A DNA stretch of 64,000 nucleotides from Amoebophrya sp. A120 (Eukaryota; Protista; Dinoflagellata), in the NCBI GenBank assembly GCA_905178155.1, contig CAJINV010000004.1, positions 8,702,882-8,766,881 of the forward strand, given 5' to 3'. Positions 4,578-57,236 of the stretch are shown piece by piece. How positions within the stretch are numbered: position 1 is the stretch's first letter; every line of letters begins with the position of its first letter. Both the position numbers and the translations under genes were made by a program. The notes beneath the pieces were generated by a model. That model saw only the letters and a list, made by a program, of their open reading frames with translations. It had not been told where the DNA came from and did not search any database.

Positions 4578-4653
4578 GCCAGTCGTCCGCTTGGCCGGTG
4601 TTATACTCCGCCGCCGTTGGTCTTGTTTCGTACCCGGAATCGGCAGGAGTGGT

Positions 4654-20100: not shown

Positions 20101-20284
20101 GAAGAGGTGTGGTGTTGAAATTCAAATTGCGTTCGCGATGGAAGGTTCTTGTAAAATGAAACGATCTCCATGGGTTCGTCATCGTCTCGGGGCACGAATT
20201 AAAATTGAATGATGTTTATGCGTGGCCTGGGCTTCTGCACCTTGTTCCAAAAATAGATACTTCAGGCACAATCGGTGTAGAAGT

Positions 20285-25900: not shown

Positions 25901-26036
25901 TGGAAGGTTCTTGTAAAATGAAACGATCTTTCGTCTTGGGGCACGAATTAAAACTAAATGATGTTTATGCGTGGCCTTGGCTGCTGCACCTTGTTCCAAG
26001 AATACTAGATACTTCAGACACAATCGGTGTAGAAGT

Positions 26037-34654: not shown

Positions 34655-34674
34655 CGGCACCCCTGACGGGACTC
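34655..34674 (+). promoter_or_regulatory. Putative tRNA primer-binding site (tRNA-Arg-like)
   Basis: cggcacccctgacgggactc directly follows the LTR; reverse complement gagtcccgtcaggggtg-ccg resembles a tRNA T-stem/acceptor 3' end, with CGG instead of TGG. Confidence 0.55.
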
Positions 34675-34869
34675 TCACCCAATGAAGTCCTTATGCATCA
34701 CTTACAAAACGAAAACTTTTTCAAATATTTCCACCCACCCAATTTCATAGGAAGCAACTTACTTACCTCTAAAGCACTACTTACTGTCGGAGCACCACAG
34801 CGGAGCGCTAAAAACTTTTTTCTTTTTTCACACTTTTGGGGCGTTCAGATCCAGAAAAGAAATCCCGAT

Positions 34870-37944: not shown

Positions 37945-37997
37945 ACGACCCCACCGATGAACCACGACAAACCGAGCCAACATTTTTCATTGGTGGG

Positions 37998-39503
37998 GTG
38001 AATCAAGATCCCCGCTTGTGCGATTTTTTCGAGGACAAGCAGTCGATCGAAGACGCATTGGCAGTTGAAGATGAAATGACACATGATGAATCTTTTTGCT
38101 CTTCTCAAGAACATTCTCTTTTTTCAGAAATCAGCACTCAGCAGGAGGAGAACGCTTCGCCGGCGGATGTCCCCCCAAGTGAAGGAGTTAGTGACGACCT
38201 CGACATCGCGAGCAACTTCAACGCGATCGGCGAGTCGGAAGAAAACTCATCGGCTTCAGGAGACCAGTCTTTTGGACCAATTTCTTTGATTAGCTTCGAG
38301 GACGCCGACGGAGTAGTGGTTTCTGTTGAATCTCCACCAACGGGCGGCATCACTGGGCCAATCGCGGTGGAAGCCCCCTCGTCAACAGCCTCCGACTCAA
38401 ATCGTTTTTCGCAGATAGCAGATAACACCAACGCTAGTGGGACGGAAAATACCGGCCCTGCGGCACAAATGGAAGAGTCGCAGGACCGGGACCGGTATTC
38501 TTATCATTCATCTTTTGGTGCGAATGATAATACCGGTCCTGTGAGTCCTTTTGATGATAAAACTGAAGATTTGTTGTCCTCGCCTCCGAAACTTCAACAA
38601 CAGCACTGCCTCACAAAACCGTCCTGTTCCGACACTCCCCCTGGAGGGATAACCGATCCCGGCACCGGAACTGGCCAGATGCGATCGAATGCCGATTTCA
38701 ACGAGGCGCGGCTCTTAGGCCCTGCAAGATTCAAGATGGTCCTCCTCGCCCAGCAAGCCGTGCGGGAGTTCGATTGGAGCCATTGGATCACTTCTGGGGA
38801 ATGGCGAGACGAAGTGTCGAAGCAGGATTTTGGATACCTTATCCGCAACAAAGATACGGACGAATCTTACTTCTGCCCTGACATTTCTGCAGAAAATCGC
38901 ATTTCCATTATGCGACCAGGGGTGTTCGGTAACCCGTTCCGCATCACAAACGAAACCGAGAGAGAATCTTCGGCAATCAAGTTTGCAGAATCCCTTGCAG
39001 AAGAAACCGCTACTGACGCGCTGGACGCTTTTTTTCAGAAGCAGGTCGATCCTGATGCTACTGCTAAGTGCGAACTCGTTTGCGTCTGCGCCCCTGACCT
39101 GTGTCGCGGTGTTGTATGGGGAAAGGTGGAACAACTCCTGATCAAAAAACTCCAAGTAGAAACCGCAATAGCAACGTCCCCTACGCCTTCGCGAACTCTT
39201 CTTCCAACGGAACAGCCGGGAATGAATGTATCCTCCTCGGACTCCGACGATTCTCCCACGGCAAAAACAACGGAGATCCCCGCTAACGACCACGAGGAGT
39301 ACGCCCGGTTCTTGCGAGAAGCTACTGCTTTTGAAGAAACGTACGAACAGCGGCAGATTGCGAAGGGCTTCAATTGTACCGGAGTGAAGAAGGTTCGTGA
39401 AAAGGTTGATGGTCGCGGAGGTCCTGTGCCACTCCTTTCCTTCCCGCCGCCGTCGCGATGGCGCACTGTCCGTGAGCCGATTCTCGTTGACCACAAGCTT
39501 TGA
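37998..39503 (+). CDS. Pol N-terminal segment: acidic low-complexity region + DUF4326-like domain
   Basis: RPGVFGNPF...LVCVCAPDLCRG; frame open from 37722 (-1 overlap with ORF1); same frame as the next ORF, separated by one TGA. Confidence 0.6.
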   Translation: MNQDPRLCDFFEDKQSIEDALAVEDEMTHDESFCSSQEHSLFSEISTQQEENASPADVPPSEGVSDDLDIASNFNAIGESEENSSASGDQSFGPISLISFEDADGVVVSVESPPTGGITGPIAVEAPSSTASDSNRFSQIADNTNASGTENTGPAAQMEESQDRDRYSYHSSFGANDNTGPVSPFDDKTEDLLSSPPKLQQQHCLTKPSCSDTPPGGITDPGTGTGQMRSNADFNEARLLGPARFKMVLLAQQAVREFDWSHWITSGEWRDEVSKQDFGYLIRNKDTDESYFCPDISAENRISIMRPGVFGNPFRITNETERESSAIKFAESLAEETATDALDAFFQKQVDPDATAKCELVCVCAPDLCRGVVWGKVEQLLIKKLQVETAIATSPTPSRTLLPTEQPGMNVSSSDSDDSPTAKTTEIPANDHEEYARFLREATAFEETYEQRQIAKGFNCTGVKKVREKVDGRGGPVPLLSFPPPSRWRTVREPILVDHKL

Positions 39504-39530
39504 AGAAAGCACTCGCATGTTGTTGTCCGC

Positions 39531-42500
39531 GTGGGTACCCGCATTGTCATGCCCGACAAGTGCGGCTCAGACCCGTTCAAGTACCTCTACCACGGGACAG
39601 ACGAGGACGTTATGGACGCAATCGCAGCAATGGCTTCTGTCAGTTTTCTTTCGACTGAAAAATCCGGCTCCGCCCTGAACATAACCCTCTGCCTCCTCAA
39701 CTTCCAGTTTTTCGAGTGCCAGCACGCGATCCGAGATAAAGACCAATGTGTACCTCCTTGCACCGTGACGAACTTGAACCCTCTGGCCTGTGACCCGAAG
39801 CTCATGACGTCGGCGCAACAACTGTACCACGTCACAAGCACAATGGCCTGTGGAAAGGTCGCTCTTGTCTGGGGCGTGTTTGGGTCAGGAAAAAGTCGAA
39901 CAATCGCCGCGGTCATTTGCGAACTGACACGCAACAAGGTGTGCCGGTGCGTCCACTTTTGCGCGGCACAGAGTCTCGCTCTCGACTCGGTCATTCGGAG
40001 ACTCCATAGTCTTGACGTCCCGACCGTCCGTTTTTCTTCGCGAGCACACCTCGAAAAGCAGAAAATGTCCAAGAAAAGCATCTTATCCTCCTTCGACGAA
40101 ATTTGTTCGCTTGTTGGTGCTGCTAGACCGACGAGCGTATTCGCCGAATATTTGAAGGAGAAGAAGAAGCGTGATCGACTTGCCGCGAGGAGAATCTACG
40201 ACAGAAAACAAGAAAAGCGATTCCTCGAAAGTCGGAAGTGGTGTGTCAAGGTTGTCCTGCGGAACGCAAAAGCAGTGTGCACAACTGTGAACAATTCCCC
40301 GAGTGTCGGGGGCGCGGGAGCCGAGATTACAATCGTCGACGAGGCAGGCCAAATTCCGGAACACGAGATGATCCCCGCAGAAGCAGGCGCGCAGCGGATG
40401 GCTTTGGTCGGAGATCACAAACAACTTCCGCCTGTGATTGTTTCTTCACGAAAACTCCCACCGCCGAAGGCAGCAGTAGCAGGACAGTCCGAAAATGCGA
40501 AACTTCTTCCCCCGACTGTCCCGGGACCAGGCAGCTTTGACGTCACTCCGCTGCGGAAGAGCCTTTTCGAACGTCTGATAACAAATGCAGCCGGAGAAAC
40601 AACAAACGCCACTGCTTTTCTTGACACACAGTTCCGCTGTCCACCTGTTCTCGCTGCACACCTGAGTGCCGAGTACTACGAGGGGAAGCTGCGAAGCGCC
40701 GAAAATGCTCCTGCAGAAGCAAAGTACACTTTTTCGCACCAGTTCGTCGGAGTCGATACAAAACCAGACATTTTTCTAGCGCGACAAGCAACAGACCGGA
40801 TAAAGCCGTACGTCTCCCCATCAACAGCAGAACGCGTCCGAGAAATGCGAGACTTTCTTGCTTCCAAGGGTGTGCTTCTGTCCGACATTCAATGTATCTC
40901 AGTCTACAAAGCCGCCGGCTCTGGGATGATCCCGCTTGTGAAACCTCTCGCCCTCGAGGGGATCGACGCATTCCAGGGAGGAGAAGTCCAAGTTTTGTTT
41001 GCGCTGATCCTGACTCCGCCTTCCGGCCCTACCGAGTGGGCGACAGACCCGCGCCGCAATTTGGTTCTGTTGTCGCGCGCTATTAGCGCTGCCTTCGTCT
41101 TTTACCCGCGCGTCGTCCAGGATACCGACACGTGCTTGAAGTCGATGGACATCTACATTCGCAACGCCGAGAAGTGTATGCATATTAGCGACACCTCTTC
41201 TATCCCCATCACCGTCGAGAAGGTTTCTGCGCCAACAGTGACAACAGTTGCCGACACGAAGGATCCAGCAATTGTCGCCGAGATTCTAAAGGACCTCGAC
41301 GGGGAAAAGACAGCGGACGACCCAGCTGAACAGGCCACGATGTTTTGCTTGCGCGAGAGTTTTTCCTCAGAACTCCACCGCTTCAATTCCGTCAGCGGCA
41401 CTGACGACTTAGAAGACTTGATGTTCCTTGACTTCGAAGATCTTGCCCTGGAGGTCAACGACAAGGCAGTCGAGGCAGCTGTTCTTGGACACCACGGAGG
41501 GAAAGAATATGCTCTTGAAGCTCTCCGCGCGGCGGAAGCAGCAGACGACGGCCACTGGCTGGACCCACACCTTTTTGGCAAAATTAAGAAAGGAGAAAAC
41601 TCGCAGACTTCGAAGCTAGAGCAGAAGAACAAATACGGGAATTTCGAAGTCTCCGCTAGTGAGATTTTTGTAGCGAAAAACGGGTGCAGTTTTTGGGTTG
41701 GAAACTTCGCCGCGACCAGTCTCCCTGGGTGGTACGTGGTCACTAACTGCACCTCGAATGTAGAAGACGCCAACAATTGCGACTTCTACCGTCGAGTCCC
41801 CCTGGTTTCCGGTGCGGAAAGCCGGAATGTCCGCGCTTCGCGAAAAAATCTGAAGTGGATTCTTCGGCACGCACAAGCAGAGAAGAAGACTTTGCTTCAC
41901 TGCGTCTGGGGACTTGATCGCTCTCCTGCTCTTTGCCGTGTCGTCGCGTACTTTATCGATGGGCTCGAAACACCTGCTGTCGAGATTTTCCGACTGTTCT
42001 CCGATGCCAGACCTCGCGTTAGGTACAGCTTCCGCGAGTACGACAAGTTTTGGCGCGACGCAATCCAAGCGCAACCTTCAACGAGAGTCCGCCTCCTAGA
42101 CGACAACTGCATGATCGAGTCTCTCCTTGACGGAGCCCGCGCCAACCCGAGCAAAATCATCGACGAGGACGACTTTATCCTTGAAAAATGTGTGCAGGTG
42201 ACCTCGAAAGCGATCGCTGCGATTGAAGCGAAGCCGCCCCGTTGTCCTCGATCCGCGATTCCACCACGAACATACATGATGAGCTTTCGCCTCGAGTCTT
42301 ACAACCCCGACTCATTGAACATCTTCCTTTCAGATCCATCGCGAGCATCTGACGCTGCAGAAGTTTTTGTTGCGCTCGCGCCGTCCTGTCTCGGACTCCC
42401 AGAAGCAAAACTTTCAACGAAAACGGCGAAGACTGCGCGCGATCTTGTTGCTGAGCGGAATTATGAGCTCACAAACTTCCTCAACGAGCGCGAAGAAGGA

Positions 42501-45500
42501 AAGCATGGGTGTTCGGTTGCAATCCCCGTCGACTGCCCGCTGAAACCGATCGCGATTCGCCGAGGTCCAAGCAAAGAAGGCCGCATTGCCATCGTGGAGT
42601 GCCTCTACTTCAGCGTCATTTTCGAGTACGCGCCAAACCGTGTCAACGACGCAGCGAACGCAGAATATGACAACGCCATCGCAGGATGCCTGCGAGAGCT
42701 GTGGAAGAGAACGCAAAAGCCATTTGTTTTGGCAGGCGATAGAAATATCGCGCCAGAAAAGAGAGATATTGCGCCAAGTCCACGGCTTTCTGCAGAGCAG
42801 GTCCCTTCCACCCGGCAGACAGACCGTGACGCGTACGACAAGTTGATCAAGGAGTTTTCACTTACCGACGCGTGGAGGTGGTGCAATCCGACCGCTGAAG
42901 GGCACTACACCGGGTTCCACCAGCAGGGGAACTGTCTCCGTGACAACGTCGGGGCTCGAGTCGACCTTTTTCTTCTGTCACCAGGGATGATGCCGCTCCT
43001 TCAAAACTGCCAGATTGTCACGACCGTCCACAAACGTCTTGGAGATCATCATCCCGTCTACTGCGACTTTTTGTTGGACTTTGGGGACGAAGTCATTCGG
43101 TCTGCCGCAGCGAAAAGAGGCATTGCAAAAGCTCTCGCCGCCCCGGCAGTCGACCCAGCAGGAAGGCAAAACTCTTCTCTTTTTGTGGGCTCCGTCGCGC
43201 ATGACGAGCGGTTTGGAACACTAGACTTCGAAGAACAGCCCGTGGCAGAGGAGGAGGAACAAGAAGAAGGTAAATCTGAGCAGAAGACAGAGTTTGCAGA
43301 GGAAGACGAGAAGTACAAGAAAATCGAGGAAAATTTCCTACGCTCGATCGGGGTTCTCAAAGAATCACACGCGTACCAGAAGGCTCTCGCGGTTTTGCGG
43401 AAGTGGATTGACGGCCGTCTCGCAGCAGGGTACACAACTTCGCAAGTGTATCAGATGTTGATGATGGACGACGCAACCGCTCCTGCGTACGCACTGGACG
43501 ACGCGTTTTTGAAATTTCTTCTCAATCTCGGGGCGGTGATGGAACTCGGGGGTAAATACGGAGTCGACAAAACGAAATTCTTGTCGCTGGTCGAGAAAAG
43601 TTGTGGAATGATTTTGAAGGGCGGCTGGCTATCCGTCCCGGAGAAGATGGTGAACGACATCAAAAAACTCGCTCGCTTACCACCAACGCCGCGCCTGATG
43701 AGACGGCTCCTGGGGAAATTAGCTTTCTGTCCAAACACCCTTGGGCTTGAGTACTCTCGCCAGGTCCCGATCCTGATCGACCTTTCTCGGAAAACCCTGC
43801 AGGAATACATCCGAAAACTCCAAGAACCAGCAGCAATTCACGCCATGGAAGTAATTATTTCTTCTTCTTCTGTCACGCCGCTTTGCCCAATTGATTGGGA
43901 TCTCGTCGATAGCGGGAAGTGGGTCGTCATTGGAATGCCTGATGCTCATTGTGTCGGGTGGGGAGGCGTCCAGTTTAGCATCGACCTCGACATATGGCTA
44001 AGCGACGACTGTTCCGATGTGCGTGCTGCGATCCGAATCCACGCAATCAAAAGCACCCCGCTCCCACCGCGACTGCGAAACCGGTGTAGCGCCGAACATG
44101 AATGCTACGCGACTCTCGGGCACTATCAGTACATTGACTACTTGATGTCGGGGCGAAACCGGTTTTGGTGCAACGACAACACAAATATCGCCACGATCGA
44201 GGATGAGATGCACCGCTGTACGGTAAAAAGTTTCAACTCTGCGATCGGGTATTTGAAAAGATTTTTTGACCAGCCGGGTCCCACGCGTCTCATCCTCCCC
44301 GAGATGTTGATGGCGTGGGGAGATGTTGCTGGCCGTCTCCACCGAAACTGCGTTGTCGCGGCGTCTCTTGTGCAAGAGACTTTGTCTCAACCGAAGCAGG
44401 CACTGAAGATCCTGTTTCCGCACGTAGACTTCGAAAAACGAGGCGAAAGCAAACGAATGAACATTATCACGGAAGAGGAGGTGAAGGATTTCGCAGCAGC
44501 AGCAGAAGAAGAAATGCATTCCTCCTCTTTCCGCGCGTGCTCCCTCGTTGGAGTCGACCCTAGTGTTGAGGAACATGATGTCAATGCGTTCAATTTCTCG
44601 GTCGTCGATCTTGTCGAAGAATTTCCGACACCGGAGACACTTGATGGGTTTACGTACGACGACCCCTTTTTGCACCGCGCCCCTGTCTCTCGGTCCTTCA
44701 GCTCAGCAGAAGTGATGGAGGTAGAAGCTGCGCCGGCATTGACCGATGATGAAGACCCTGACCCAGTCCTGGAGCCGGTCGCGCAATATGTGATTTCAAA
44801 CCCAGAGCAGTGCTCTACGCTCTCGGTAGACTTGATTTCTACCGCAGATTCGTCCGCCACGATCTGCTGCCACGAGCTCTACCTCGACACGGACGACCAC
44901 GCTCTTGCGCGGTCAGGACATCTATTCGTGAAAAGATTCAGCACCGACGAAAACGCCGTCGACTTTGCTCTCGTAATCGGCAGTGTTTGGGACGGGGCCA
45001 ACCCTGACGCTGTGTACGGCGACGACGCATTTACAATTGTTTGCAGCGAGCTCAAGCTGAAGATGAGTGGCGAAGAACTGCGGAAAAAGTGCGACGGAGT
45101 CCTGCAACACCGAGTCTGTGCCGACGAGTATCCCTTGATGACTGTCTCGGAAGTTGACATGAAACAGGTCTCGTTGGGGTTCCGCGCACAACAAATTGTC
45201 GACTTTTCCTACTGTGTCGACCTCCTTTCCTTCACTCCTGTTGCTGGGTTCAAGGGTTTCGACCTGACAACAATGATGAAAACGACCCGAATTTTGCGTG
45301 TGAGGCAAGAATCCGCGGGGGTGTGTAGCGTTTCGGATTTGGAGCTCGCTTGGCGCATTCGCGAAGACAAGATCGAGCGCGACGACACGTGGACCCCGAT
45401 CCTCGCGGTCACAGCACCTGCAGTGCGAAAAGCATGGCTTAACGCCGTCTACGACTTCAACGTGCTTTCTAGTTTCCGTGTGGGTGGAAAACGGCATGGA

Positions 45501-48467
45501 GATGCTGAGAGCGATAGTGAAGAAGGTAGTCGCAAGAAGCGGAAGCCGGCTGGAAAATTGTTTGACCCTCCGCGAGATCGGCCCACGGCAAAAACAGATG
45601 AGGACCTCCCCACGGCAAAAACAGAACAGAACCCTGTCCAAGACCCTGCTTCATCTTCGCGCGACTCGCCCCCAGATGAAGGTCCCCCACCTACAGAAGA
45701 ACGTGAAGCAGGTCCGATTTGTTATGACATTGGAGATGACTCTGATGACGACATCCCTGTCTTCGAACAAATCAAGAACCGAAAGCGAGAAATCACGCAT
45801 AACGACGTCCAGAACATGTACCGCGAGCTTTTGCAGGAGTCTGATTTTCTTGGGCTGCCGACGATTTTGCGAGAAGTAGGCGTCGACAAGAAACGAGCGA
45901 AGGGGCCCATCCCTCTGACGGACGCCGAAGTTTTGAAGATCCATCAGCTCGACGACCACCGGCCTGCGAAAAGTCTATCCTACGGTCTTCGTGTCGCGGG
46001 GTATCAAGTATCGGAAGAACAGGCACAACGATCAATTTTGAAATGCTGGCGCGGTGGGCCGCTTTTCAACAAGTTTTTCCCGAAGAAGAAAGCCTCGCTG
46101 CGAATTCCGAGTCCGAATGAGTGGAGCACCGACCTCTTCTGGCTCCCGTGGTCAAACGGTCGGCTGAACCTCCGCGACAAATTGTTTGAGATCACGGACG
46201 AACCTTTCTCGGCGGAAGAGTGGAAAAATGTTGCCCGCTGCGACATCTACAGCATCATTGGAAACTCGCGGTGGGACACGCGCACTACCCCGATCGAAGA
46301 TGGCACGCTGACACTCAACTTCATGCAGTTCGAGAAGCAGATAAAGTGCAAGCCGACCATCATCCTTGTTAGCGATTCCTTCGCGCGAGGGTCAGCAGTT
46401 TTGAACTACGGCGCTATCCGCACCGACGTCCCAATGGTCCCCTACCACAGCCAAGACGCGGCTACATCTATCAACGGTCCGCAGCAGTTTACGTTCCGTG
46501 TTCTCTGGTACGACAACCACGAGCTGGCAGTAGAACTAAAACTCACCCGGCGTGAGAAGTGCATGATGATCGATGTCCGAATGAACTGCATCCCAGCGGG
46601 GAATATCAACATCAACTACCTTCTGCCTGGGCGAGACACAGAATTTATGATGCAGCGCGCCCTTATCGGCTTGGCGGACATGTACGTGGCCCGCGCTCTC
46701 CTTCAACCGCGAGTCCAGAGAATGCTCCACATGCGGATCAACGATCGGCACGGACTGACGATGCCGCCGCACTGCGATACATCTTGCAACAGAGAGGAGA
46801 TGGCGTGCTTCAAACACACAAAACACGGAATGGCGGAGGCGCTGCTAGAAGCGCAGAAGAGGACTACGATTACCTCCGCTGGTGGTCGTCCTCTGACCGT
46901 GCAGGGTGAACAGTGCAAATTTGAAAAAGCAAGACCTGCGTCCCTTCCGATTGTGTTCTTCGCTATTTACCCGCGGCACAAAGCGGTGAAGTTGGAGATT
47001 TGCCACGGTGACTGGTCCAGTTATGCAGTCAACCCGCTGCAGAGCGACCCGATCGAGGGTCCTGCTCCTGCAGAACAACTTGTCGCCAAGATCGGATCAC
47101 CGCGCCCTGCAGGATTCTTCCGCGTCCGCGACTCAAACGGATCTGCAATTGCCTTCGAAGCTCGGCGAGGGCGCGAACCGCTCATGCACAAAATCGGACT
47201 GCACAAGCTAGAAGACGGAGTTCTTTGCTTCACTCGCGGGAACTACGTGCCTGGCACTCCACGACACCTGTACGGGTATAAAATCCCCGGAGGAGTAACA
47301 ATAAATGGAGTAAACCGAGCCGCGCTCTACTGGCAGTGGCATGTTGAAGATCGCGCACTCCCTGAGGGTCAGTTCCGCACTGTCGCTCGCCTTTGGATGC
47401 GACGCCGAGTAGAAGAAGACGGAGAACTTGAAACCTGGGCGGGGAGTGGCACCTTCAACCTCCTTGCGCCTGCAGTAACAGAACAATCTGTCGCGGAAGA
47501 ATTTCTTACTGCAGAAACTGGGATCATCGACGAGACAAGCCTGCCTGACAACCAGAACTACACGAATGCGCTTGCAGCTGTTTCTTTGCATGAAGCGACC
47601 TGCATGTGCCGCAATATTGCTGAGCCACTCCGCGCACGTGCGGTCCAGCGATGTCCTAGCGGGTTTCTTGTCCCTCTGAGCGACAACAGACGCGTGACTA
47701 TTTCGGACGACTCTCTCCGCGCATGGACAAGTCATTCTGAGTTCCGAGAAGCAGCGTGTCGCGCGATCTTCGACAGCGCCCCTGTTGCTGACTCATTTGT
47801 TTCAACGGAAGGAGTTTTCTTCGAAGCAACAACAACTACGAATAAATTTGACGCAGGAACGGAGTGGAAAACTGAAAAAACATCAGCCCTCGAGGACGTC
47901 GCCCTTGCTTGCGCCCAGTTTTACACGGGCGAGCAGTGGAGTGAAGAGTTCGCGACTGCAACTTTCAACTCATGCCGGTACGCGCCGGACGACGGCGAAA
48001 CCTCAATCAACATGGCGGCTCCGGTCATCGTCGAAACCTCGCTCGATGATTTTGTTCTCCCCGAAGCTGCTTTCCTGCGCGCTGCACCTGCGGAAGAGGG
48101 AAATTCGTCCTTGGCACCTGCCGCGGTGCCAGTAGTAGCAAAACAAAAACAGGCTGTCGGACAGTTTTCCAAGAGAGCAACTGAGTCTAAATATGTCGTC
48201 ATCAAGGCGTGTTTAGATGGGCGCATCAGAAGTGCTGTGTCTCTCGACAAGTTTGAACAAGACGCGTTTTACATCGGGAAGGACGCCACCGGCCCAGCGT
48301 TCTACATGCGAGATAGGGTCTCGTTTTTTCTCGCGAAGCACAACGCGCCCCCAACACCGAAAGAGGGAGCAACCCTTGAGCAGATCCTCATCTACATCAT
48401 TTGCCCCGAGACAGCCTGGAGTGCAATGAATTGTCGACAGTGGTTGTGCGTGTGGTCCAACTTTTGA
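39531..48467 (+). CDS. Pol main segment: Upf1-like SF1 helicase, dual-specificity phosphatase-like, ExoIII/APE nuclease, RT C-half, RNase H, aspartic protease-like, integrase-like
   Basis: GVFGSGKS/DEAGQ/GDHKQLPP/SLFERL/TQFR/DAFQGGE; HCVWGLDRS; GDRN/DAWR/RVDLFL/GDHHPV; LMMDD...KTKF...RRLLGKLAF; PDAHCVGWGG/EHECYA; ADSSAT...DAVYGDD; HQLDDH/EWSTDL/VSD/PYHSQ. Confidence 0.85.
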   Translation: MGTRIVMPDKCGSDPFKYLYHGTDEDVMDAIAAMASVSFLSTEKSGSALNITLCLLNFQFFECQHAIRDKDQCVPPCTVTNLNPLACDPKLMTSAQQLYHVTSTMACGKVALVWGVFGSGKSRTIAAVICELTRNKVCRCVHFCAAQSLALDSVIRRLHSLDVPTVRFSSRAHLEKQKMSKKSILSSFDEICSLVGAARPTSVFAEYLKEKKKRDRLAARRIYDRKQEKRFLESRKWCVKVVLRNAKAVCTTVNNSPSVGGAGAEITIVDEAGQIPEHEMIPAEAGAQRMALVGDHKQLPPVIVSSRKLPPPKAAVAGQSENAKLLPPTVPGPGSFDVTPLRKSLFERLITNAAGETTNATAFLDTQFRCPPVLAAHLSAEYYEGKLRSAENAPAEAKYTFSHQFVGVDTKPDIFLARQATDRIKPYVSPSTAERVREMRDFLASKGVLLSDIQCISVYKAAGSGMIPLVKPLALEGIDAFQGGEVQVLFALILTPPSGPTEWATDPRRNLVLLSRAISAAFVFYPRVVQDTDTCLKSMDIYIRNAEKCMHISDTSSIPITVEKVSAPTVTTVADTKDPAIVAEILKDLDGEKTADDPAEQATMFCLRESFSSELHRFNSVSGTDDLEDLMFLDFEDLALEVNDKAVEAAVLGHHGGKEYALEALRAAEAADDGHWLDPHLFGKIKKGENSQTSKLEQKNKYGNFEVSASEIFVAKNGCSFWVGNFAATSLPGWYVVTNCTSNVEDANNCDFYRRVPLVSGAESRNVRASRKNLKWILRHAQAEKKTLLHCVWGLDRSPALCRVVAYFIDGLETPAVEIFRLFSDARPRVRYSFREYDKFWRDAIQAQPSTRVRLLDDNCMIESLLDGARANPSKIIDEDDFILEKCVQVTSKAIAAIEAKPPRCPRSAIPPRTYMMSFRLESYNPDSLNIFLSDPSRASDAAEVFVALAPSCLGLPEAKLSTKTAKTARDLVAERNYELTNFLNEREEGKHGCSVAIPVDCPLKPIAIRRGPSKEGRIAIVECLYFSVIFEYAPNRVNDAANAEYDNAIAGCLRELWKRTQKPFVLAGDRNIAPEKRDIAPSPRLSAEQVPSTRQTDRDAYDKLIKEFSLTDAWRWCNPTAEGHYTGFHQQGNCLRDNVGARVDLFLLSPGMMPLLQNCQIVTTVHKRLGDHHPVYCDFLLDFGDEVIRSAAAKRGIAKALAAPAVDPAGRQNSSLFVGSVAHDERFGTLDFEEQPVAEEEEQEEGKSEQKTEFAEEDEKYKKIEENFLRSIGVLKESHAYQKALAVLRKWIDGRLAAGYTTSQVYQMLMMDDATAPAYALDDAFLKFLLNLGAVMELGGKYGVDKTKFLSLVEKSCGMILKGGWLSVPEKMVNDIKKLARLPPTPRLMRRLLGKLAFCPNTLGLEYSRQVPILIDLSRKTLQEYIRKLQEPAAIHAMEVIISSSSVTPLCPIDWDLVDSGKWVVIGMPDAHCVGWGGVQFSIDLDIWLSDDCSDVRAAIRIHAIKSTPLPPRLRNRCSAEHECYATLGHYQYIDYLMSGRNRFWCNDNTNIATIEDEMHRCTVKSFNSAIGYLKRFFDQPGPTRLILPEMLMAWGDVAGRLHRNCVVAASLVQETLSQPKQALKILFPHVDFEKRGESKRMNIITEEEVKDFAAAAEEEMHSSSFRACSLVGVDPSVEEHDVNAFNFSVVDLVEEFPTPETLDGFTYDDPFLHRAPVSRSFSSAEVMEVEAAPALTDDEDPDPVLEPVAQYVISNPEQCSTLSVDLISTADSSATICCHELYLDTDDHALARSGHLFVKRFSTDENAVDFALVIGSVWDGANPDAVYGDDAFTIVCSELKLKMSGEELRKKCDGVLQHRVCADEYPLMTVSEVDMKQVSLGFRAQQIVDFSYCVDLLSFTPVAGFKGFDLTTMMKTTRILRVRQESAGVCSVSDLELAWRIREDKIERDDTWTPILAVTAPAVRKAWLNAVYDFNVLSSFRVGGKRHGDAESDSEEGSRKKRKPAGKLFDPPRDRPTAKTDEDLPTAKTEQNPVQDPASSSRDSPPDEGPPPTEEREAGPICYDIGDDSDDDIPVFEQIKNRKREITHNDVQNMYRELLQESDFLGLPTILREVGVDKKRAKGPIPLTDAEVLKIHQLDDHRPAKSLSYGLRVAGYQVSEEQAQRSILKCWRGGPLFNKFFPKKKASLRIPSPNEWSTDLFWLPWSNGRLNLRDKLFEITDEPFSAEEWKNVARCDIYSIIGNSRWDTRTTPIEDGTLTLNFMQFEKQIKCKPTIILVSDSFARGSAVLNYGAIRTDVPMVPYHSQDAATSINGPQQFTFRVLWYDNHELAVELKLTRREKCMMIDVRMNCIPAGNININYLLPGRDTEFMMQRALIGLADMYVARALLQPRVQRMLHMRINDRHGLTMPPHCDTSCNREEMACFKHTKHGMAEALLEAQKRTTITSAGGRPLTVQGEQCKFEKARPASLPIVFFAIYPRHKAVKLEICHGDWSSYAVNPLQSDPIEGPAPAEQLVAKIGSPRPAGFFRVRDSNGSAIAFEARRGREPLMHKIGLHKLEDGVLCFTRGNYVPGTPRHLYGYKIPGGVTINGVNRAALYWQWHVEDRALPEGQFRTVARLWMRRRVEEDGELETWAGSGTFNLLAPAVTEQSVAEEFLTAETGIIDETSLPDNQNYTNALAAVSLHEATCMCRNIAEPLRARAVQRCPSGFLVPLSDNRRVTISDDSLRAWTSHSEFREAACRAIFDSAPVADSFVSTEGVFFEATTTTNKFDAGTEWKTEKTSALEDVALACAQFYTGEQWSEEFATATFNSCRYAPDDGETSINMAAPVIVETSLDDFVLPEAAFLRAAPAEEGNSSLAPAAVPVVAKQKQAVGQFSKRATESKYVVIKACLDGRIRSAVSLDKFEQDAFYIGKDATGPAFYMRDRVSFFLAKHNAPPTPKEGATLEQILIYIICPETAWSAMNCRQWLCVWSNF

Positions 48468-50493
48468 CATCAACGGCGCGATCAACCATTTCCGCGACAT
48501 CGCTGACAACACAACAGACGAGAACAAGAAGAATTGGGCACAGTCGCTAGCAGATAAACTTCGTTCTTGCAAGAACGTCTTTGACAAGGCCCGCCTGAGC
48601 CTTTGCGATGGTGCTGTTACCGAACGGCTGGCGATCACCCTCGGAGACGAAGCAGTCGAGATTCTTCTTTCGCACTACGAAGGTCCCCACTGCGTCTCCG
48701 GGTTCACCGGCGGGTCCCGCGACTTGAGCCCCACCGTGTTGCAATTCAAGGTGTACTTGTGCGACCGGCGCACTGGTCGACTCCATCTAACCCCATGTGT
48801 CAACAACTATGTGACGCGGCCGTGGTGTCGGAGTGCCCCCACCTGGGAAACTCTGGGCGTTGCCTTCGGAAGCTGTGATCTAGCCCGTTTCAACTTCCGA
48901 CTTTCGAAAGAAGAGCCAGAGGTTATTTTTGATCTCCCCGACGGTGTCACGGTTCACGTCGCAAACCTTGTCAAGTTCCCAGACGCACCATTGTCGCCGG
49001 TAACAGAATCAGCAGCACAAGAAGCCCGAGTGCTCAGCATCACAAAGCCATCGAAGGAAGAAATTGAAGCGCTCCGCGGAGAAGAGGCAGACAAAACAAT
49101 AACTCTCCGTGCGGGGCAACAAGCAACAGCGGTGGTCGATATTCCTGTTCTTGCTGGAACAAAAATCAAAACTTCGCTCACGACCCCGACAGATGCAGAG
49201 CGGCTTCTCCTCGTCCACAATGGCCATGTCGTGCCTCTGATTATGGCTGCACCTCCGTCGCACCAAGTTACATTACGAGTGGAAGCAATCAAGCAGAAGG
49301 CGCGCATCAAAAACGGAGTCATCGGAATTACTATCACTCCGTTCCACGGAAACTCATCGCACAACTGTAAGGTCCAGTTAGGGGAACTCGCGGAAGAAGT
49401 TGGTCTTGATGCTGCAATGAACCTCCTCACCGGTGAGCCGCGTGATTTGGGTCCCGGTTTAGAGCAGGCAGGAAGTGGCCAGCTCAACGCAGCGGGCGCT
49501 GTCTCGAATATTCCAGAACTCACCCCTGCCTACATGGAAGAATGTCGGAAAGAACACGCGAAATTTATCGAGACAAAGAAGAACAGCAGCGAAGGGCCCG
49601 ACAAGTTTCTTTTCCACGTGTGGCGACAGTATCTCAGTACCGCAGACTGCGAGGCTTTGTATACTTCTTGCGCTCGAGAAGGTCGCGACATCGAGAAAAC
49701 AATTAAGCTGTGCGAGGCGTTCCTCTTCATCGCCGCTGTCGAGTTCGGGCACAAAACGCAGATGACGGAGGGGCACACGATACCGATCTTCAGATTCCCT
49801 GGTTGCGGGTCGGAGCTTATAAATCATAGCAAGACCCCACCGGAACAACCCAAGCGTTTCCGAAACCCGCCGGATTTGGATGAAATAATGCGGATGCTGA
49901 GCGACCAGGATGTGATGAGTGACATCGTCGAAGCCTTGTCTGCTACGAAACACGGGTCGGCCAAGTTCGTGAGCATGACCATGTGGGCCCAGCGGTCTAA
50001 CCGTTTCCTCGGGCGGTGGGTTTCGATCCTGAAGGGGCCAAACATCATGAAGCAAGAAACATACTGCTTCTCGATCATCCCCTCCCAGATCGTCGACGGT
50101 CTCCGGCACCATCTGACAATCGGTTACATCGCGGTGGACATAAAGAGAGCACTTCAAGGAGTCCGCGTTTTTACCGAGCTGGGACTTTGGTTGGCGATGA
50201 CAATAGGAGACACTGTTTTTATACCCAAGAGGGCCAGTCTCGGTTTTACCAGCTGGCCGGGTATTTTTGGACAAATCGTCAACCCGATTTTCCAGGGACT
50301 CCGAGCTGGTCCAGAAGCAGCAGCAGCCTTCTTCTTGGAGCTCGTCGACCCGCTTCTAGAACTACACGCAGAAATGGAGAAAGTCGGATTGGCAGACGCG
50401 TGCCGGTCGTGTTCACACTCATACCGTGCGTCAATTACAGAAGAGAAGAAACAGCTGCACGCCTCCCAGCGGAGTGGGAGAGAACAAGAGTAG
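48463..50493 (+). CDS. Pol C-terminal segment: dUTPase-like beta region + RT N-half (motifs A and B)
   Basis: Frame open from 48430 (+1 relative to previous ORF); PKRFRNPP, RWVSILKGPN, AVDIKRALQGV (motif A), PKRASLGFTSWPGIFGQIV (motif B); no YxDD follows. Confidence 0.75.
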   Translation, partial: FDINGAINHFRDIADNTTDENKKNWAQSLADKLRSCKNVFDKARLSLCDGAVTERLAITLGDEAVEILLSHYEGPHCVSGFTGGSRDLSPTVLQFKVYLCDRRTGRLHLTPCVNNYVTRPWCRSAPTWETLGVAFGSCDLARFNFRLSKEEPEVIFDLPDGVTVHVANLVKFPDAPLSPVTESAAQEARVLSITKPSKEEIEALRGEEADKTITLRAGQQATAVVDIPVLAGTKIKTSLTTPTDAERLLLVHNGHVVPLIMAAPPSHQVTLRVEAIKQKARIKNGVIGITITPFHGNSSHNCKVQLGELAEEVGLDAAMNLLTGEPRDLGPGLEQAGSGQLNAAGAVSNIPELTPAYMEECRKEHAKFIETKKNSSEGPDKFLFHVWRQYLSTADCEALYTSCAREGRDIEKTIKLCEAFLFIAAVEFGHKTQMTEGHTIPIFRFPGCGSELINHSKTPPEQPKRFRNPPDLDEIMRMLSDQDVMSDIVEALSATKHGSAKFVSMTMWAQRSNRFLGRWVSILKGPNIMKQETYCFSIIPSQIVDGLRHHLTIGYIAVDIKRALQGVRVFTELGLWLAMTIGDTVFIPKRASLGFTSWPGIFGQIVNPIFQGLRAGPEAAAAFFLELVDPLLELHAEMEKVGLADACRSCSHSYRASITEEKKQLHASQRSGREQE

Positions 50494-51303
50494 ATCATAG
50501 AAATTCATAGCGAACCAATACAAATCGCCTCAACTTTTTGATACACGAGAAATCAGCCTCTTTTTCCTTGCGCCGTTCCTATCACAGACCGAAGATCCGC
50601 GCCACAATTTTGCTTTGATCTATACAATTTTGCTTTCGTGCACTCGCGTGCTTCAATCCCAATGCAATCATAGTCTTTTCAAAATAGGTAGCACTAAGTG
50701 CGAAAAGTAGAAGATATCGAACCGACACAAAAAAAAAAAAGGGAGAAAGAAAAGGATGCCGTACTTCGTCTTCGCGGGCACAACTATTCTATCTGACCGT
50801 GACGCAAGTCCTCGCGCGTTACATACAATTCAGAATACTGCCTCAGAGACAATCTATTGGAGGGGTAGCGGCTCGCTCACGGCAGCGCGGTTACGCGAAA
50901 ACGATCTCCAGTACGCACCTCCTAGTAGCGAAAGTAGTTCTAGTTCTAGTAGCGAAAACAGTTCTAGCACTAGCAGTAAAAGCAGTAGTAACGAAAGTAG
51001 TTCAAGCAGCACAAGTTCACACCGCGCTCCAATCGCTAATCGAAGAAGGAGGAAATCACCAATGAGCGGACAGTTGCCGTGTAGTTCTATGCACCCAGGC
51101 GGTTTTGCTCCTATTTGATTTCCTTTTCCGTTTTTACGAAAAGGAAAGATTAAGGAAGAAAAAAAAAAAAACAAACTACGAAAAAAAAAAAAGAACGACG
51201 CTTTTCTCTGACTTTACAATAAATAAACTTCATCCGTTTACTTTCCCTTACCTCATTTTACTACTAAGTTCTCTCCCGCTCCGGCCGCTTCCGTCCGCTC
51301 ACC

Positions 51304-52617
51304 ATGTCGAAGCAGATTGACGAAAAAACCGGAGAACCGTTACTCCGCGGCGGCACTCCGGCCTTGCATTGGTCCGGCGCCAGTAAGAAAAAGGGAGGAA
51401 ATAAAACCACGGTGAAAGAAGAGCCTTCTCCGACCAAAACTACCGGATCCGCTGGAAATAAGGGGAACAAGTCTTCCGCTTCCGGTGCGAACAAATCCGC
51501 CGCTTCCGGCGCGAACAAGCCCGCTTCCGGCGCGAACAAAGCCGCTGCTTCTGGCGCGAACCAGACGCCCGATTCCGGTAAGAACAAACAGGCGAAATCC
51601 GAGGACGAGTTAGTGTTGCAGAAATCGAAAAAGCGCCGGAACAGCCGCGGCCAATTCTGCTCCGACCCCGCGAAGCGCATCAAGGAAGAAATTACGGACA
51701 AGCAGCTGGATGAAGAATTGGAATACGATGTCGCCCGCGCGGACGAGATCCGCGCCGCCGCTACTCCGCCGATGGTGGGAAGTGAAGGAAAGAAGGGATA
51801 CCGCACCAAGTCGGGACCGGTCGTGAAGGAAAAGCAGGCGCAGGCTTCGGTGGGGAAAGAAGGATTGCCGGAAAAATATGTGCATATTCCGTCGAGTGCC
51901 GAGCTGTTCGTCAAAGACCAGTGCGAAAAGCTGAAAAAGAACCATCAGGAGTTGTTCGACACGCACAAGGAGCTGCTCGCCGACTACACCAAAACCCACA
52001 AGAAGGCGGTCGAGAACAAGGAAAAATCCGAGGCGATGAAGTTTGAAAAGCAAGGACTCGCGGCGGACTACCACAAGCTGCACGAGGAAAACATGTCCAT
52101 GAAGAGCGCCCGGAAGATGGGCGAGCTGCAGGCGGAACTTCGTCTGTGTCGTAAAGAGTTGGAAGAATCTCGCCAGGCCCGGCATGGTGACAGGGTGATC
52201 ACCCGTCGCCGTTTGCGAGATCGCTACTCCCACAGCTCCGCGGCCGATACCCACTCCTCCGAGCTCATCGGAGATGACTCCGATTCTGGGTCGAATTTTA
52301 CCGCCGGCATCGACGCTGCGCGCAACAAGGGGAAGAAAGGAGGAAAGTACGACGGTGGAAAGAAAGGGAAATTTTTTGGTGGTGATTTTGTCGACGGCGG
52401 CTGGATGAACGGAAAATACGGTGATGCCGGAAAGAAAGACGGGATGAAGGGAAAGGACGGCGACGGCAAGAAGGGCGGTCCCATCGGTCCGGCGGACCGC
52501 AACCGCGATGATGACTCCTCCGACTCCGTCTTCGGCCCCACCCGTCGCTTCACCAAGGGCGGAAAGAAGGATAAGAATGGTGGAAAGGCGGGCGAATACA
52601 AGGGTGAAAAGAAATAA
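51304..52617 (+). CDS. Accessory ORF of the LTR element: Lys/Gly/Asp-rich with SGANK repeats and central coiled coil
   Basis: 437-aa ATG ORF with coding-like composition between pol and the 3' LTR; no recognisable family. Confidence 0.75.
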   Translation: MSKQIDEKTGEPLLRGGTPALHWSGASKKKGGNKTTVKEEPSPTKTTGSAGNKGNKSSASGANKSAASGANKPASGANKAAASGANQTPDSGKNKQAKSEDELVLQKSKKRRNSRGQFCSDPAKRIKEEITDKQLDEELEYDVARADEIRAAATPPMVGSEGKKGYRTKSGPVVKEKQAQASVGKEGLPEKYVHIPSSAELFVKDQCEKLKKNHQELFDTHKELLADYTKTHKKAVENKEKSEAMKFEKQGLAADYHKLHEENMSMKSARKMGELQAELRLCRKELEESRQARHGDRVITRRRLRDRYSHSSAADTHSSELIGDDSDSGSNFTAGIDAARNKGKKGGKYDGGKKGKFFGGDFVDGGWMNGKYGDAGKKDGMKGKDGDGKKGGPIGPADRNRDDDSSDSVFGPTRRFTKGGKKDKNGGKAGEYKGEKK

Positions 52618-53638
52618 GTGTGTGACCGGGTAGCAGTGGTCTTGCGACTACTGGAGTCATAGCATTATTTTCGTAAGAAAAGTCTGGCATTTATGCAAAA
52701 GCACTAGCCCTTGCGCAATACAAATTGTTTTTCTCTGGAAATATTTTTTTCTGTGAAAAAAATATATCACCGCATCGCTCTATAGGCAGCAATCTTTGTG
52801 CCACTTCGAAGTAATCCGCAGTATCATGAGCTTTTGGGTGAAGATTTGTAATAAATTCATCCGACGCGATTCCAATAGGGTGCTGGTGTACTACGACGCA
52901 GAAATAATTCAGCGACAGAGCCTATAGATGTAGCGGCGGTAATGAAGGGGAAAGAAGGGAAAATCATCCCAACTACTTAGATCTTTTATTTTTTATGAGA
53001 GCCTCCTACTCGACAGCTGTTCAAGAAGCCTAGATTAGCAACCACCCGCGCCACAACTTTTGATCTACCGAAGTTTATAGTTGAAAGATCGTCACTTCGA
53101 AATGATACTGCCTGAGCGACAAGATCGCGCATTTTCTTTATTTCAAGAACGAAAATAACAACTGCTTTTACTTTTCGACCTTCGCCTCAACAGAACTTCC
53201 TCTTCACTCTTAAGCCCAATTTTGTTTTATGGAATTGTAATTTTTCTCTATCAGGATCGACAACAAGTGCGTCTTTTTTATGTGGTCTTCATCTTCTTAT
53301 CCTGCACTAAAAAAAACCCTCGTAACCACAGCGAACACCAAATACAAAAAAAAATAATATATAGGGCTAGCAGAAAGACATGAAAAATATATCAACAAAC
53401 CACGTAAAAAGAACGCACAGCAGCCCGCGTTCATTCAAATACAAAAAAATAAGAAAGTCCTCAAATACAAAAACAGAAGAAAATATAAAAACCAAAAACA
53501 TTTCCTTATTCCGAAAGATATGAAAAAAATATAAAACAGCTTAAGGAGGAAAAAGTGACCTTCTCCCATTTCTAACGAGCAGTAAGACTAAGTAAGAATA
53601 CGCCTTCTCTCTCAGCCATCTCACGACGCCAGCCGGCG

Positions 53639-54646
53639 CGTTACTTTGTGAAGTAGTGTGTCGTCGTGAGATGCTGAGAGGAGAAGAGGGCAAGCGAGGA
53701 ATTTGGTGCGTGAGCTTTTTGAAATTTGGAGCGCTTGGCACGAGAGTGTTTGGCTTGAAAGAATCGCACGGGAAACAACTCTCAGGAACAAATCAACTTT
53801 TGAGCCAAAGCCTGTAGCTGCACTGCTTGTTTTTTTGGGGAACGTGAAAAAATCTACCTGCGCAGGGCCTCCTTGTGCGTTTCTGCATGAAAATCTGCTT
53901 ACTAGTACCGCTGTGGTGTTCCGACTTCGATATCTGCATTTTGAGTACACACCTTTACTATTCTAAGATCGGTCGACCATGCCTTCTAGTCCCGCGCGCG
54001 TCGCGTCCGTCAGCGATCATTTCTGCTACGAAAATATCTGTCATTCTAGTTACGGCCCTTCTCTTTACGAAATTTGCACCGATCTCGACGACCGCACTGA
54101 TTTTCTCTGGGATCGCACTTACAAGATAGGAACAGAACAACAGGACCTGTTAGCCCGCGTTACCCGCCTTGAGAAAGAAGTATCAGACTTGAAGCACGCC
54201 ACGCCCGTAATCTCGGTTGCAAAAGTTTTACAGCGTCTGTCTTCCCGCGTTCTGCCACGCAAATGAATCAGATTCTAAGTACAAACACGACGAGAATCTA
54301 GCACAAGCCTAGGGGTTCTACTTTTTTTTCTACTTAGCAAATCCGCCTGTCACGATGAGGAGCGCGCGAGAGAAGCGAGTAGCTGTTCCTGCCGCAGCGC
54401 CATTCTTCTTCATCTTGATTTGTTACACTTTGGCGCCTGCTTTTGTGTCCATTGTTTCCGGAATCTGCTTCCGTGCAAAGACGAAAAATCAAAGCACACA
54501 CACGGGGATCCTACTAGAGCTGAACCTAGAACCAGAAGCGTCGGGTCGTCGTGTCTTCCTATTCTCGAGCTCGCGACGCCCTATCTTAGATCCGTACTCT
54601 GTTAGAGGCGACGACGAAGGGGCTACAGGCATATTTTACTTTAACG
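53639..54646 (+). repeat. 3' LTR (cgttac...ttaacg)
   Basis: Matches the 5' LTR; terminal inverted repeat cgtta/taacg. Confidence 0.95.
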
Positions 54647-57236
54647 GTCAAACATGTAGCCAAAATTCAATGCGCAACGCATGAAATTCGCATATGCATC
54701 ACCGTTATGCATTTTTTTTGATTTATTCTCTACACAGACTCTTCCCATACTGTTTTTTCTGGTATTTTTTAAGATTGTCAAAATTTTGAAAAATTTCAGA
54801 TTGATGAAAAATGCTGAAACGTCACACAAAAAGTGTAGAGTTGCCATGCTTTTGCATACTGAATTTAATTCTTGTTCATTTCCCATTGATCCAATTTGTT
54901 TTGCATTTTTATTTTTTGACTATTTTAGACCTTCCAAAAAATTGAAAATTTTGCAGAGTGATTTTACTTGAGAAATAATGAATAAAAAAGACCAGAAAAA
55001 AGACACTATTATGCAAAAATTCCTTTTGTTTTAATGTACGTGACTAAAGTAATGCTATTATAGTGTGTTATTGAGCAACTTCAAGAATTTTACAAAATTT
55101 CAAAATTTTCGAAAATTGAGAGCACTTGGAGGCGTTTGCGTTAGTCATTATATACCCAGACATCGGCTCTGCAGCCATCCTCTTACTTATACAAAGACAA
55201 CAGTGCTGGAATTTCCATCTGTTTGCAAAATTATGAAAAAAAAAGTAGAAAAATGCTCCACCCTGTGGCCAGCCCCCTCCCCCCTCCACCCCACCCCACC
55301 CATAATCGGACCCACAATGGAATAAGGATCCTGTCCCCCATCAACCATAGTCAGCGAGGCCCCCAACTGCATTGCCTGACACGCAGAAAGAGCTACACCC
55401 CGCCCCGCGCGTGCATTGCTCCCACCGGCGCTACCCGACGCCGCCCCCTGCTCCGGCTGCCCGCCGCGGCGGGGTTCGACGCGTCGCAGCGCTCCGCGCG
55501 CGCCCTTGCCAACGCTCCACGCACTTCCCGACGCTCTGCCGCGGCGGTGTTCGACGCCCCGCCGCGGCGCCGCTCGGATTCCCGGTCATACGCGTGGCGA
55601 CGCTGCTGGCAGGCGCGGGCCGACGCTTCCTGCAGGCGCGGACTGAGTCCGCGCCGCGGCGTCTTTCGACGCTCCGTCCCTGCGCACCCCGGCGCTTCTG
55701 GCTGGCACGCGCAGACGCTCCGGCGCAACGGCGTTCGGCGCTCCGCCGCGGTGCTGTTTGGCGCGCCTCGCAGCGCCGCCGCGAGTTCCGCGCTGGCGCC
55801 GCTGCACGCTCCGCCGCAGCGCTGCTTGGCACTCCGTTGCGGCGCCACTTGGCGCTCGTCGTCCTAGCGGGCGCGGCTCCACCGCCCTTTCCAGTCCGGA
55901 ATGGCTCGTCGTCTCCTTTGATTGGGCTGGGGCCTATCGAGGCGCGCCGGTTTGCGTGCGGAGGTCCAACGCCATTCGTTTTATATTTCGGTCGGTTGAG
56001 GAGGGGAAGGACTTCTGCCCCCCCCGTGAGCCTGAGCGCAGCAAGACGTGGAGCTTTGGTGGACTTCGTTCGCGTTGCGGTTTGGTAGCCCATCTTTCTT
56101 TCGTCAGCATCGGTGCTATATGCAGATCATGCTTGAATAAGGTGGTCGCAATGCGAGAAGACTCATGCGGACTAATTGCTGTTGCGACATGTATCTACAT
56201 AGCATGCTGCCTTCTACTAGTAGCTCATTCGCCAGCACGTCTCAATCATTTTGTTTGGGCTGCCAGTGTTGCACGGGGTAAGCCAGTACATTCAGAATAT
56301 TGGGGCAGACAAAGTAGAGCCCAAATAGTTACGGCACCTTCATCAACACTCTGCACCGGCGCGATTTTCATCACGGCGTGGTTCTCTAGCAATAACTGGT
56401 CGCAACGACTTTGTGCGTGCGGATTCTTCTTGTGCAGCAGCTTCGCCGGCAATACGGCATGCTGTTTGCGCCACCAGTGCGGAAAATGTTGGGGGCACAT
56501 TATGCGTCGAGCGAACTTCCACCAGTCGAGGTTTACAATGTATTACGAGCAGGGTACTAGTTCTGCCACAGCAAGAACGACACACCTCTAGGCTGAGAAA
56601 TCAAACAGCGAAAAGAATCTCGGGGCCGGAAGCCGAATGAAAGTGCCGAGGGTGTTCATCTCATGAGCGTATTTTGCGACGTTTTTCTTTTTACCTGAAC
56701 CGCGGCGACAGAAGTGAGGAAGAATCATTCCAACCATGAACAAGAGAGGTCAGCGCCTTTTTAGTCCGCATAAGTACCACGAGGAGCATTTTCATACAGT
56801 ACATTGGAGCGGGCCCGACTCTCAGAACTGTGCGAATATTAAAACGTCTCCGAAATGGGTTTTCTTGGCGGGGGAAATATTAATCATAGCCTGCAATTAG
56901 AAAGAACAGTTGAGACATTTGTGAATCGGTTTAATACAGACTGCTGCTCCCTTACAAGAAAAGATGTGACCACGACCCTCGTGACAACATCAGGGGCTGT
57001 TTCTTTTTGCACCTCGTCCGCACGAGGGCCGGCCACCCTGGGTGGAGATCGTGCGCCCACGACTGCGAGGCTGAAGTTCTGCCGCGAGGAGCCGGGCGAA
57101 AACCGACGTCCAGAAGACATCGCCGCACAGCCCCGCACGAAGGGCAAATGTAGGACTACAGCAGTATTCTAGGCGGTTGAGGCAGACCCAGACAACGTAG
57201 TGCTCGTCCTGCTGTGCTACTACTGACTACAAAAAA

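Follow-up and report, generated by a model that had tools for sequence, protein, structure and literature searches.

An apparently undescribed family of LTR retrotransposons with a reverse transcriptase split between motifs B and C in Amoebophrya

Active polymerases composed of two polypeptides are known, including HIV p66/p51 and the Ty3 homodimer, as well as the split archaeal PolB and phage gp43. However, one subunit of HIV p66/p51 and of the Ty3 homodimer has all three polymerase aspartates, and the archaeal and phage enzymes are family B DNA polymerases, not reverse transcriptases (RTs). To our knowledge, the presence of RT motifs A, B and C in one chain has been treated as fixed, and RT profiles and transposable element annotation rely on it. 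In the palm, the motif A aspartate has to lie next to the DD hairpin, as described in PMC8310298 and PMC8640165, and motif B is separated from motif C by 33 residues in the RT of Moloney murine leukaemia virus (MMLV; G191 to D224, PMC8640165). Here, we analyzed a stretch of 64,000 nucleotides from Amoebophrya sp. A120 (contig CAJINV010000004.1), called the window below, in which positions 33647-54646 form a single 21-kb long terminal repeat (LTR) element. The RT of this element is cut between motifs B and C. Its C-half is encoded 6.7 kb upstream of its N-half, with integrase and protease in between, as follows.

43290-43868, + strand: RT C-half (RT-C), with a helical, Trp-marked extension, motif C MMDD (D 43467, 43470), motif D Lys 43569, primer grip and thumb
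43869-44453, + strand: RNase H, directly after the thumb, with catalytic D 43941, E 44100, D 44175 and D 44322
45801-46808, + strand: integrase-like domain, with an H/C zinc-finger pattern and two conserved Asp (46131, 46374) in an alignment of 16
48430-49320, + strand: retropepsin-like protease, with catalytic DSG at the frame start, a flap-like GFTG and an LG-x-x-DL-like motif
49723-50493, + strand: RT N-half (RT-N), with fingers, motif A D 50137, motif B G 50242, helix alphaE, extra helices and the stop

The first-pass annotation had proposed a split and permuted RT, and the motifs it quoted were in place, with LMMDD at 43458-43472 and the motif A and motif B residues as listed. It also held correctly that the N-half stops without a YxDD. 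The 83 residues after motif B contain no DD up to the stop codon at 50491-50493. An EEP/ExoIII domain and an acidic linker lie ahead of the DD half, where motifs A and B were expected, again as annotated. Family profiles built without the window matched RT-N once (E 5e-62) and RT-C once (E 6.6e-32) across the six frames of the window, and the next-best matches had E values of 0.04 and 0.26. Therefore, neither half has a further, hidden copy in the window.

Pfam RVT_1 and PDB sequence searches detected neither half and found no RT in the window. The failure of Pfam and PDB searches for RT, integrase, protease and Gag is explained by sequences that are too divergent. The assignment of the halves to RT was based on predicted folds, language-model look-alikes and conservation in the family. 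Used as leads only, the look-alikes placed the downstream piece with RVT_1 clusters (0.91) and the upstream piece with RT/RNase H-type clusters (0.91-0.94).

The N-half model, folded with 25 sequences, reached a predicted local distance difference test (pLDDT) score of 79.7 and matched 143 PDB RT chains at E<=0.001. Residues 32-205 aligned with residues 1-172 of HIV-1 RT (Z 15.5, root-mean-square deviation (rmsd) 2.5 A, 156 aligned), and the predicted structure also matched Ty3 RT 26-206 (Z 14.8). The RT part of the model ends after helix alphaE, just ahead of the YxDD strand, and two extra helices follow; the YMDD of HIV-1 RT lies at residues 183-186. In the C-half model (pLDDT 70), primer grip, thumb and RNase H matched the RTs of cauliflower mosaic virus (CaMV), MMLV, foamy virus and Ty3, with Z 13.5, rmsd 5.0 and 220 aligned residues for CaMV RT. 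When the C-half was folded alone, its DD region (residues 41-110) had a pLDDT of 36-65, as expected of a strand needing a partner. The models support reading the two fragments as complementary RT halves, neither of which is complete.

An HMMER search with the 687-residue downstream frame against 1.84 billion representative proteins gave 31 relatives. Fourteen of them carry both halves in one chain and one reading frame of 2240-6024 residues, and the other 17 are partial. The order of the window (RT-C/RNase H, integrase, protease, RT-N) was found in 12 of the 14, with motif C 2016-3291 residues ahead of motif B. P0003 has the order RT-N, integrase, protease, RT-C/RNase H, with motif C 1824 residues past motif B; its full length (4020 residues) was present in 8 of 11 cluster members, in ENA and Logan assemblies. 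P0030 has the near-collinear order integrase, protease, RT-N, RT-C/RNase H. No DD was present within 50 residues after motif B in any of the 14 full relatives. In 13/14, the two halves are separated by integrase and protease, and integrase precedes protease in 14/14. Neither the length (1800-3300 residues) nor the content of the inter-half linkers is fixed. The first-pass annotation had regarded fragments unlike RT, a complete RT in one fragment or collinear copies elsewhere as fatal to its proposal. Both fragments match RT, neither is a complete RT, and the layout is a family trait; P0030 comes nearest to a collinear copy, with N before C but still a gap of 228 residues from motif B to motif C.

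Three relatives have names, all of them from Amoebophrya (AT5.2, A25), and most others are metagenome proteins. Amoebophrya has spliced-leader trans-splicing and non-canonical introns, as described in PMC7789003, and such a host would favor a restoration of the RT at the RNA level, where back-splicing or trans-splicing joins the N-half to the C-half into an ordinary one-chain enzyme. We consider this very unlikely. The whole pol is kept as a single open frame, the tails extend 50 to 197 residues past motif B and end in stops, and the three gene orders would require three splicing schemes. Furthermore, the extensions at both cut ends, namely the helix after alphaE and the aromatic-marked segment before the DD, are conserved even in the near-collinear P0030, where a low-complexity linker joins them. 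The segment before the DD carries Trp in 8/15 sequences and Tyr in 2/15.

A scan of metagenome DNA left one locus from 151 candidates, L001, which is the contig of P0002 and has a single frame of 4493 residues. No LTR pair was seen in the 20,780 of its 23,167 nt examined. IMG/VR scans gave no relatives, and word-based protein searches gave nothing new (one returned only its query, P0016). In the Amoebophrya AT5.2 gene model P0005, the split-RT polyprotein is preceded by a Copia-type integrase and RT (residues 465-1289); gene prediction has probably fused a nested element to it. P0052, in the cluster of P0032, is a family member on a 10-kb contig annotated in a Bathyarchaeota metagenome bin, and it is probably a misbinned eukaryotic contig.

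The catalytic residues were invariant in the family, whereas the RT halves have a mean identity of 22-25%. In RT-N, the motif A Asp (27/27), the fingers Arg (27/27) and the motif B Gly (28/28) were conserved, and in RT-C, the DD (15/15) and the motif D Lys (15/15). The RNase H catalytic D/E/D were present in 15/15 each and the last Asp in 14/15. The two conserved Asp of the integrase-like domain were found in 16/16 and 15/15, and its third acidic residue was not invariant. The catalytic Asp of the protease aligned in 14/14 full relatives. One could argue that the halves are no longer a polymerase, that another RT copies the element in trans and that the pieces are kept for other roles, given that the window copy is broken and that RT activity is a prediction. 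However, the invariance of all three polymerase aspartates, the fingers Arg and the motif D Lys at such low identity, together with the co-inheritance of the halves described below, makes this highly improbable.

An assembly error or a copy-specific rearrangement has practically no chance of accounting for the layout. We found nothing in its favor, and it is refuted by short-read contigs and by the 12 distant relatives of the same order. A 16,354-nt short-read contig, from two runs of one sample, covers 34612-50965 with zero differences, and a second, diverged 16.9-kb contig of that sample has the same spacing from 42894 to 50965. This sample is possibly the source of the window itself, so these contigs bear on assembly and not on spread.

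Unrooted trees with 15 rows each were built for RT-N, RT-C/RNase H, integrase and protease. Two clades were common to the four trees: the window with P0002 and P0003 (and P0005), weaker for protease, and P0007 with P0015 and P0019. Pairwise identities of RT-N and RT-C were correlated (r 0.68; 0/5000 permutations as high), a test that relatedness alone would pass. Thus, the halves were inherited together, a result that concerns co-inheritance only. P0003 was sister to the window with support of 99/96 in RT-C/RNase H and 98/98 in integrase. A P0003+P0030 group, as required by a single N-before-C origin, was rejected by the approximately unbiased test (p-AU 1e-6), although the group was set by gene order after the tree had been seen. 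P0003 is therefore a swapped member that arose inside the permuted group with its catalytic residues intact, and together with the rejected single origin, this indicates that position in the chain does not matter. The pattern suggests that the likely first step was the insertion of a loop, of the kind seen in P0030, to separate alphaE from the DD strand, after which the halves became independent and movable. Since the trees have no root, P0030 may instead be a re-fusion.

We consider it likely that the element's own protease frees the two RT halves, which then dock again to form a single active site. The gag-position open reading frame (ORF) and a pol polyprotein overlapping it in the -1 frame would be made, and the retropepsin-like protease would cut in the low-complexity linkers. 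Fingers, motif B and the aspartate of motif A would come from the N-half, and the C-half would add RNase H, the thumb and the DD hairpin. This hairpin would complete the palm sheet by sliding in next to the strand of motif A, with helix alphaE on its other side. The extra helices at both cut ends would aid docking, a role that is plausible from their conservation, and the integrase would insert the cDNA with a 5-bp duplication. Because all three aspartates are kept and neither half has another source, the halves must meet. Two released pieces are preferred because integrase and protease lie between the halves in nearly all layouts and normal maturation would cut them apart, and the swapped P0003 favors position-independent pieces.

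The halves might also stay in one chain, with the polyprotein folding back into a circularly permuted RT and integrase and protease looped out. Both halves share one reading frame in all 14 full relatives, P0030 needs just its 228-residue loop, the protease motif is atypical in 8/14, and foamy viruses keep protease and RT fused (7ksf was among the fold matches). However, the protease aspartate is invariant, the long linkers are free to change in length and content, and cutting out the integrase separates the halves in 13/14 layouts. In known LTR elements, integrase is released in order to act. A one-chain enzyme is therefore unlikely.

Several points weigh against release and re-docking of the halves. 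The fold search leaves the DD segment of the C-half unplaced in most rows, where aligned ranges start at model residue 94-106, and one HIV row starts at 63 versus 188, in register; motif C was thus identified by invariance and spacing. The protease label comes from motifs only, and D[ST]G is present in 6/14 full relatives with its Gly replaced in the other 8/14. The gag-position ORF had no match in Pfam or the PDB and no CCHC motif that would mark it as Gag. In the window copy, pol is interrupted by a premature TGA (39501-39503), and its frame shifts at the codon for the catalytic residue of the protease (48427-48432). We infer docking, cleavage and activity from sequence and models.

Both lesions of the window copy were present in the short-read contigs. 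The frame runs through the protease site without a break in P0002, P0003, P0009, P0011 and P0020, so the frameshift is confined to the window copy. With the TGA, the frameshift and LTRs 2% apart, this copy is probably decayed and no longer autonomous, judging from its sequence. Recoding at the TGA or the frameshift is possible. A changed genetic code was rejected, since the roughly 4270 codons contain a single in-frame stop. The view of the first-pass annotation that the element transposed in this form stands for the element family, but the window copy is probably not autonomous. In three RNA read sets with the same species label, all that matched the element were artefacts of the poly(A) type, and nothing matched it in two possible RNA contig sets; these sets may come from another strain and so have no bearing on expression.

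The boundaries of the element and its remaining features are as follows.

33642-33646, + strand: left target site duplication GTCAA (5 bp)
33647-34654, + strand: 5' LTR, 1008 bp, with CG..CG ends (not TG..CA), holding an ORF of about 95 residues and the start of ORFa
34321-37944, + strand: ORFa in gag position, 1207 residues stop to stop, overlapping pol in the -1 frame
37722-39503, + strand: start of pol, acidic region with DUF4326 at 38892-39116, ended by the in-frame TGA
39780-41129, + strand: superfamily 1 (Upf1-like) helicase, accessory (Pfam AAA_11 E 6e-19, AAA_12 E 1.5e-11)
41610-42080, + strand: dual-specificity phosphatase-like domain, accessory (Pfam DSPc E 2.6e-4, under the curated cut-off; family profile)
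42231-43121, + strand: EEP/ExoIII (AP endonuclease-like) domain, accessory (Pfam E 0.013; family profile)
51268-52617, + strand: ORFc, 449 residues stop to stop, Lys/Gly-rich, with a charged helical stretch
53604-53686, + strand: hairpin across the 3' LTR junction, at the expected polypurine-tract site
53639-54646, + strand: 3' LTR
54647-54651, + strand: right target site duplication GTCAA

The element has the features of an LTR retrotransposon, with direct LTRs and a short target site duplication, and it encodes protease, RT, RNase H and integrase, the RT and RNase H identified by fold and the protease and integrase by conserved motifs only. The LTR pair is 98% identical, with 20 differences per 1008 bp, of which 18 are transitions. 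Both LTR boundaries are also break-off points of other copies in the same genome, and a second copy likewise starts with CGT. The ORF of about 95 residues (33987-34274 in the 5' LTR) is open in both LTR copies.

No tRNA-type primer binding site (TGG start) was seen behind the 5' LTR, no self-priming complement of that region was found in the LTR, and the tRNA gene scan found none. Before the 3' LTR, no polypurine tract was seen, and the sequence there is pyrimidine-rich. It pairs with the first 50 bases of the LTR in the listed hairpin. A 131-nt stretch at this junction folds at -53 kcal/mol (z -3.8 vs 200 shuffles), and the hairpin might define the plus-strand primer. The Rfam scan gave no family, with a single chance miRNA match on the hairpin (28 vs 104 bits).

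The pol region is in three pieces, 37722-39503, 39504-48467 (2987 residues stop to stop) and 48430-50493 (687 residues). L001 has an ORFa homologue in the same position and with the same -1 overlap with pol, as in gag-pol. No perfect in-frame X-XXY-YYZ slippery site was present at the ORFa/pol overlap. The window RNase H is intact and has an RNase H1 fold in the predicted structure (Z 8.9). Pfam gave no rve match for the integrase-like domain and no protease match, and the names integrase and protease are our assumption from motif patterns, without a profile match. The EEP/ExoIII domain gave Pfam E values of 1e-4 to 3e-4 in P0002 and P0003. No relatives of ORFc were found.

The accessory domains move and swap among relatives, with DUF4326 in three different places. 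P0014 has PP2C in place of the dual-specificity phosphatase, and in P0026 a further phosphatase separates the protease from RT-N. L001 has at 18475-20778 a 768-residue 3' ORF with Cys/His clusters, unrelated to ORFc of the window. Elsewhere in the window, 48-4953 is an element with 99% identical direct repeats and a 1231-residue minus-strand ORF with a Pfam match to DUF7491 only; we take this ORF to resemble a Penelope-like RT, from its N-terminal GIY-YIG-like motif and C-terminal coiled-coil extension. A 5762-bp unit is repeated in three nearly identical tandem copies at 8561-25929, with a diverged fourth copy to about 29600, and 16-bp repeat arrays lie at 62011-62960.

The split-RT family is real and conserved, and apparently it is an undescribed LTR retrotransposon with an RT architecture without known equal. 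No description of it was found in the literature, with subscription journals, Repbase reports and supplements outside the scope. In the accessible texts, the term 'split reverse transcriptase' appeared in a single paper, on CRISPR tools. The accessible text of the Amoebophrya genome paper (PMC7789003) mentions LTR elements in general only, and its Fig. S4 on repeats may list such elements; that of bioRxiv 10.64898/2026.05.21.726589 makes no mention of the family. Since it is invisible to Pfam RVT_1, the family is missing from RT and retrotransposon surveys. Tentatively, we picture an undescribed giant LTR retroelement lineage of marine alveolates with a natural two-subunit RT, in which two polypeptides, encoded at any place in pol, would contribute the three catalytic aspartates, activity would be switched on only once the protease has freed them to dock, priming would proceed without a standard primer binding site or polypurine tract, and integration would use CG ends. 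The family reveals a natural cut site in the RT palm, and its loop insertion, permutation and swap are living intermediates on the way to a split polymerase. It may also hold a maturation switch for reverse transcription and, for tools such as split prime editors, an RT that already comes in two parts.

The first-pass annotation called the RT Ty3/Gypsy-like. The element works like Ty3/Gypsy, but the tests of domain order and of termini do not place it in that group. With Ty3/Gypsy (Metaviridae; Ty3 RT 4OL8) and the related Ortervirales RTs (CaMV 8R0S, MMLV, foamy, HIV-1), it shares LTRs with a target site duplication, a gag-position ORF with a -1 overlap, a protease, the RT fold, RNase H directly after the thumb and, in most members, an integrase-like domain after RNase H. 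It differs in having its RT palm cut after motif B and before motif C, in the order RT-C/RNase H-integrase-protease-RT-N, the CG..CG ends, the absence of any TGG-type primer binding site or polypurine tract seen, the lack of a recognisable Gag and the helicase, phosphatase and EEP cargo. The Metaviridae order protease-RT-RNase H-integrase with one collinear RT was present in 0/14 full relatives and not in the window, whose CG..CG ends also depart from the TG..CA of Metaviridae LTRs. Fold matches do not separate retroviral, caulimoviral and Ty3 RTs. The Ty1/Copia (Pseudoviridae) order protease-integrase-RT-RNase H does not fit, with integrase ahead of protease in every full relative, and the RT halves had no Pfam RVT_2 match, the Ty1/Copia type of RT. 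DIRS, Ngaro and VIPER were ruled out by the direct LTRs with a target site duplication, the integrase-like domain and the lack of a Pfam recombinase match.

The giant Gypsy elements Burro/GYPSM1 and Ogre, as described in PMC6431247, are also >20 kb with one polyprotein of 4000-5000 residues and many accessory domains. However, Burro keeps the order protease-RT-RNase H-integrase and a typical Gag, and its cargo is different (PMC6431247). The Naiad/Chlamys Penelope-like elements are likewise retroelements with a changed domain order, but in the description of PMC8557442 whole domains are reordered and the RT itself is intact. The nearest precedent for motif C before motifs A and B is found in the permuted RNA-dependent RNA polymerases of Birnaviridae and Permutotetraviridae (C-A-B-D), which keep the active site geometry with motif C ahead, according to PMC8310298. 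In those enzymes, only the motif C hairpin has moved, inside one RNA polymerase domain (PMC8310298). The split RT is not of this C-A-B permuted type: motifs C, D and E, the thumb and RNase H move together, to a position 1800-3300 residues away.

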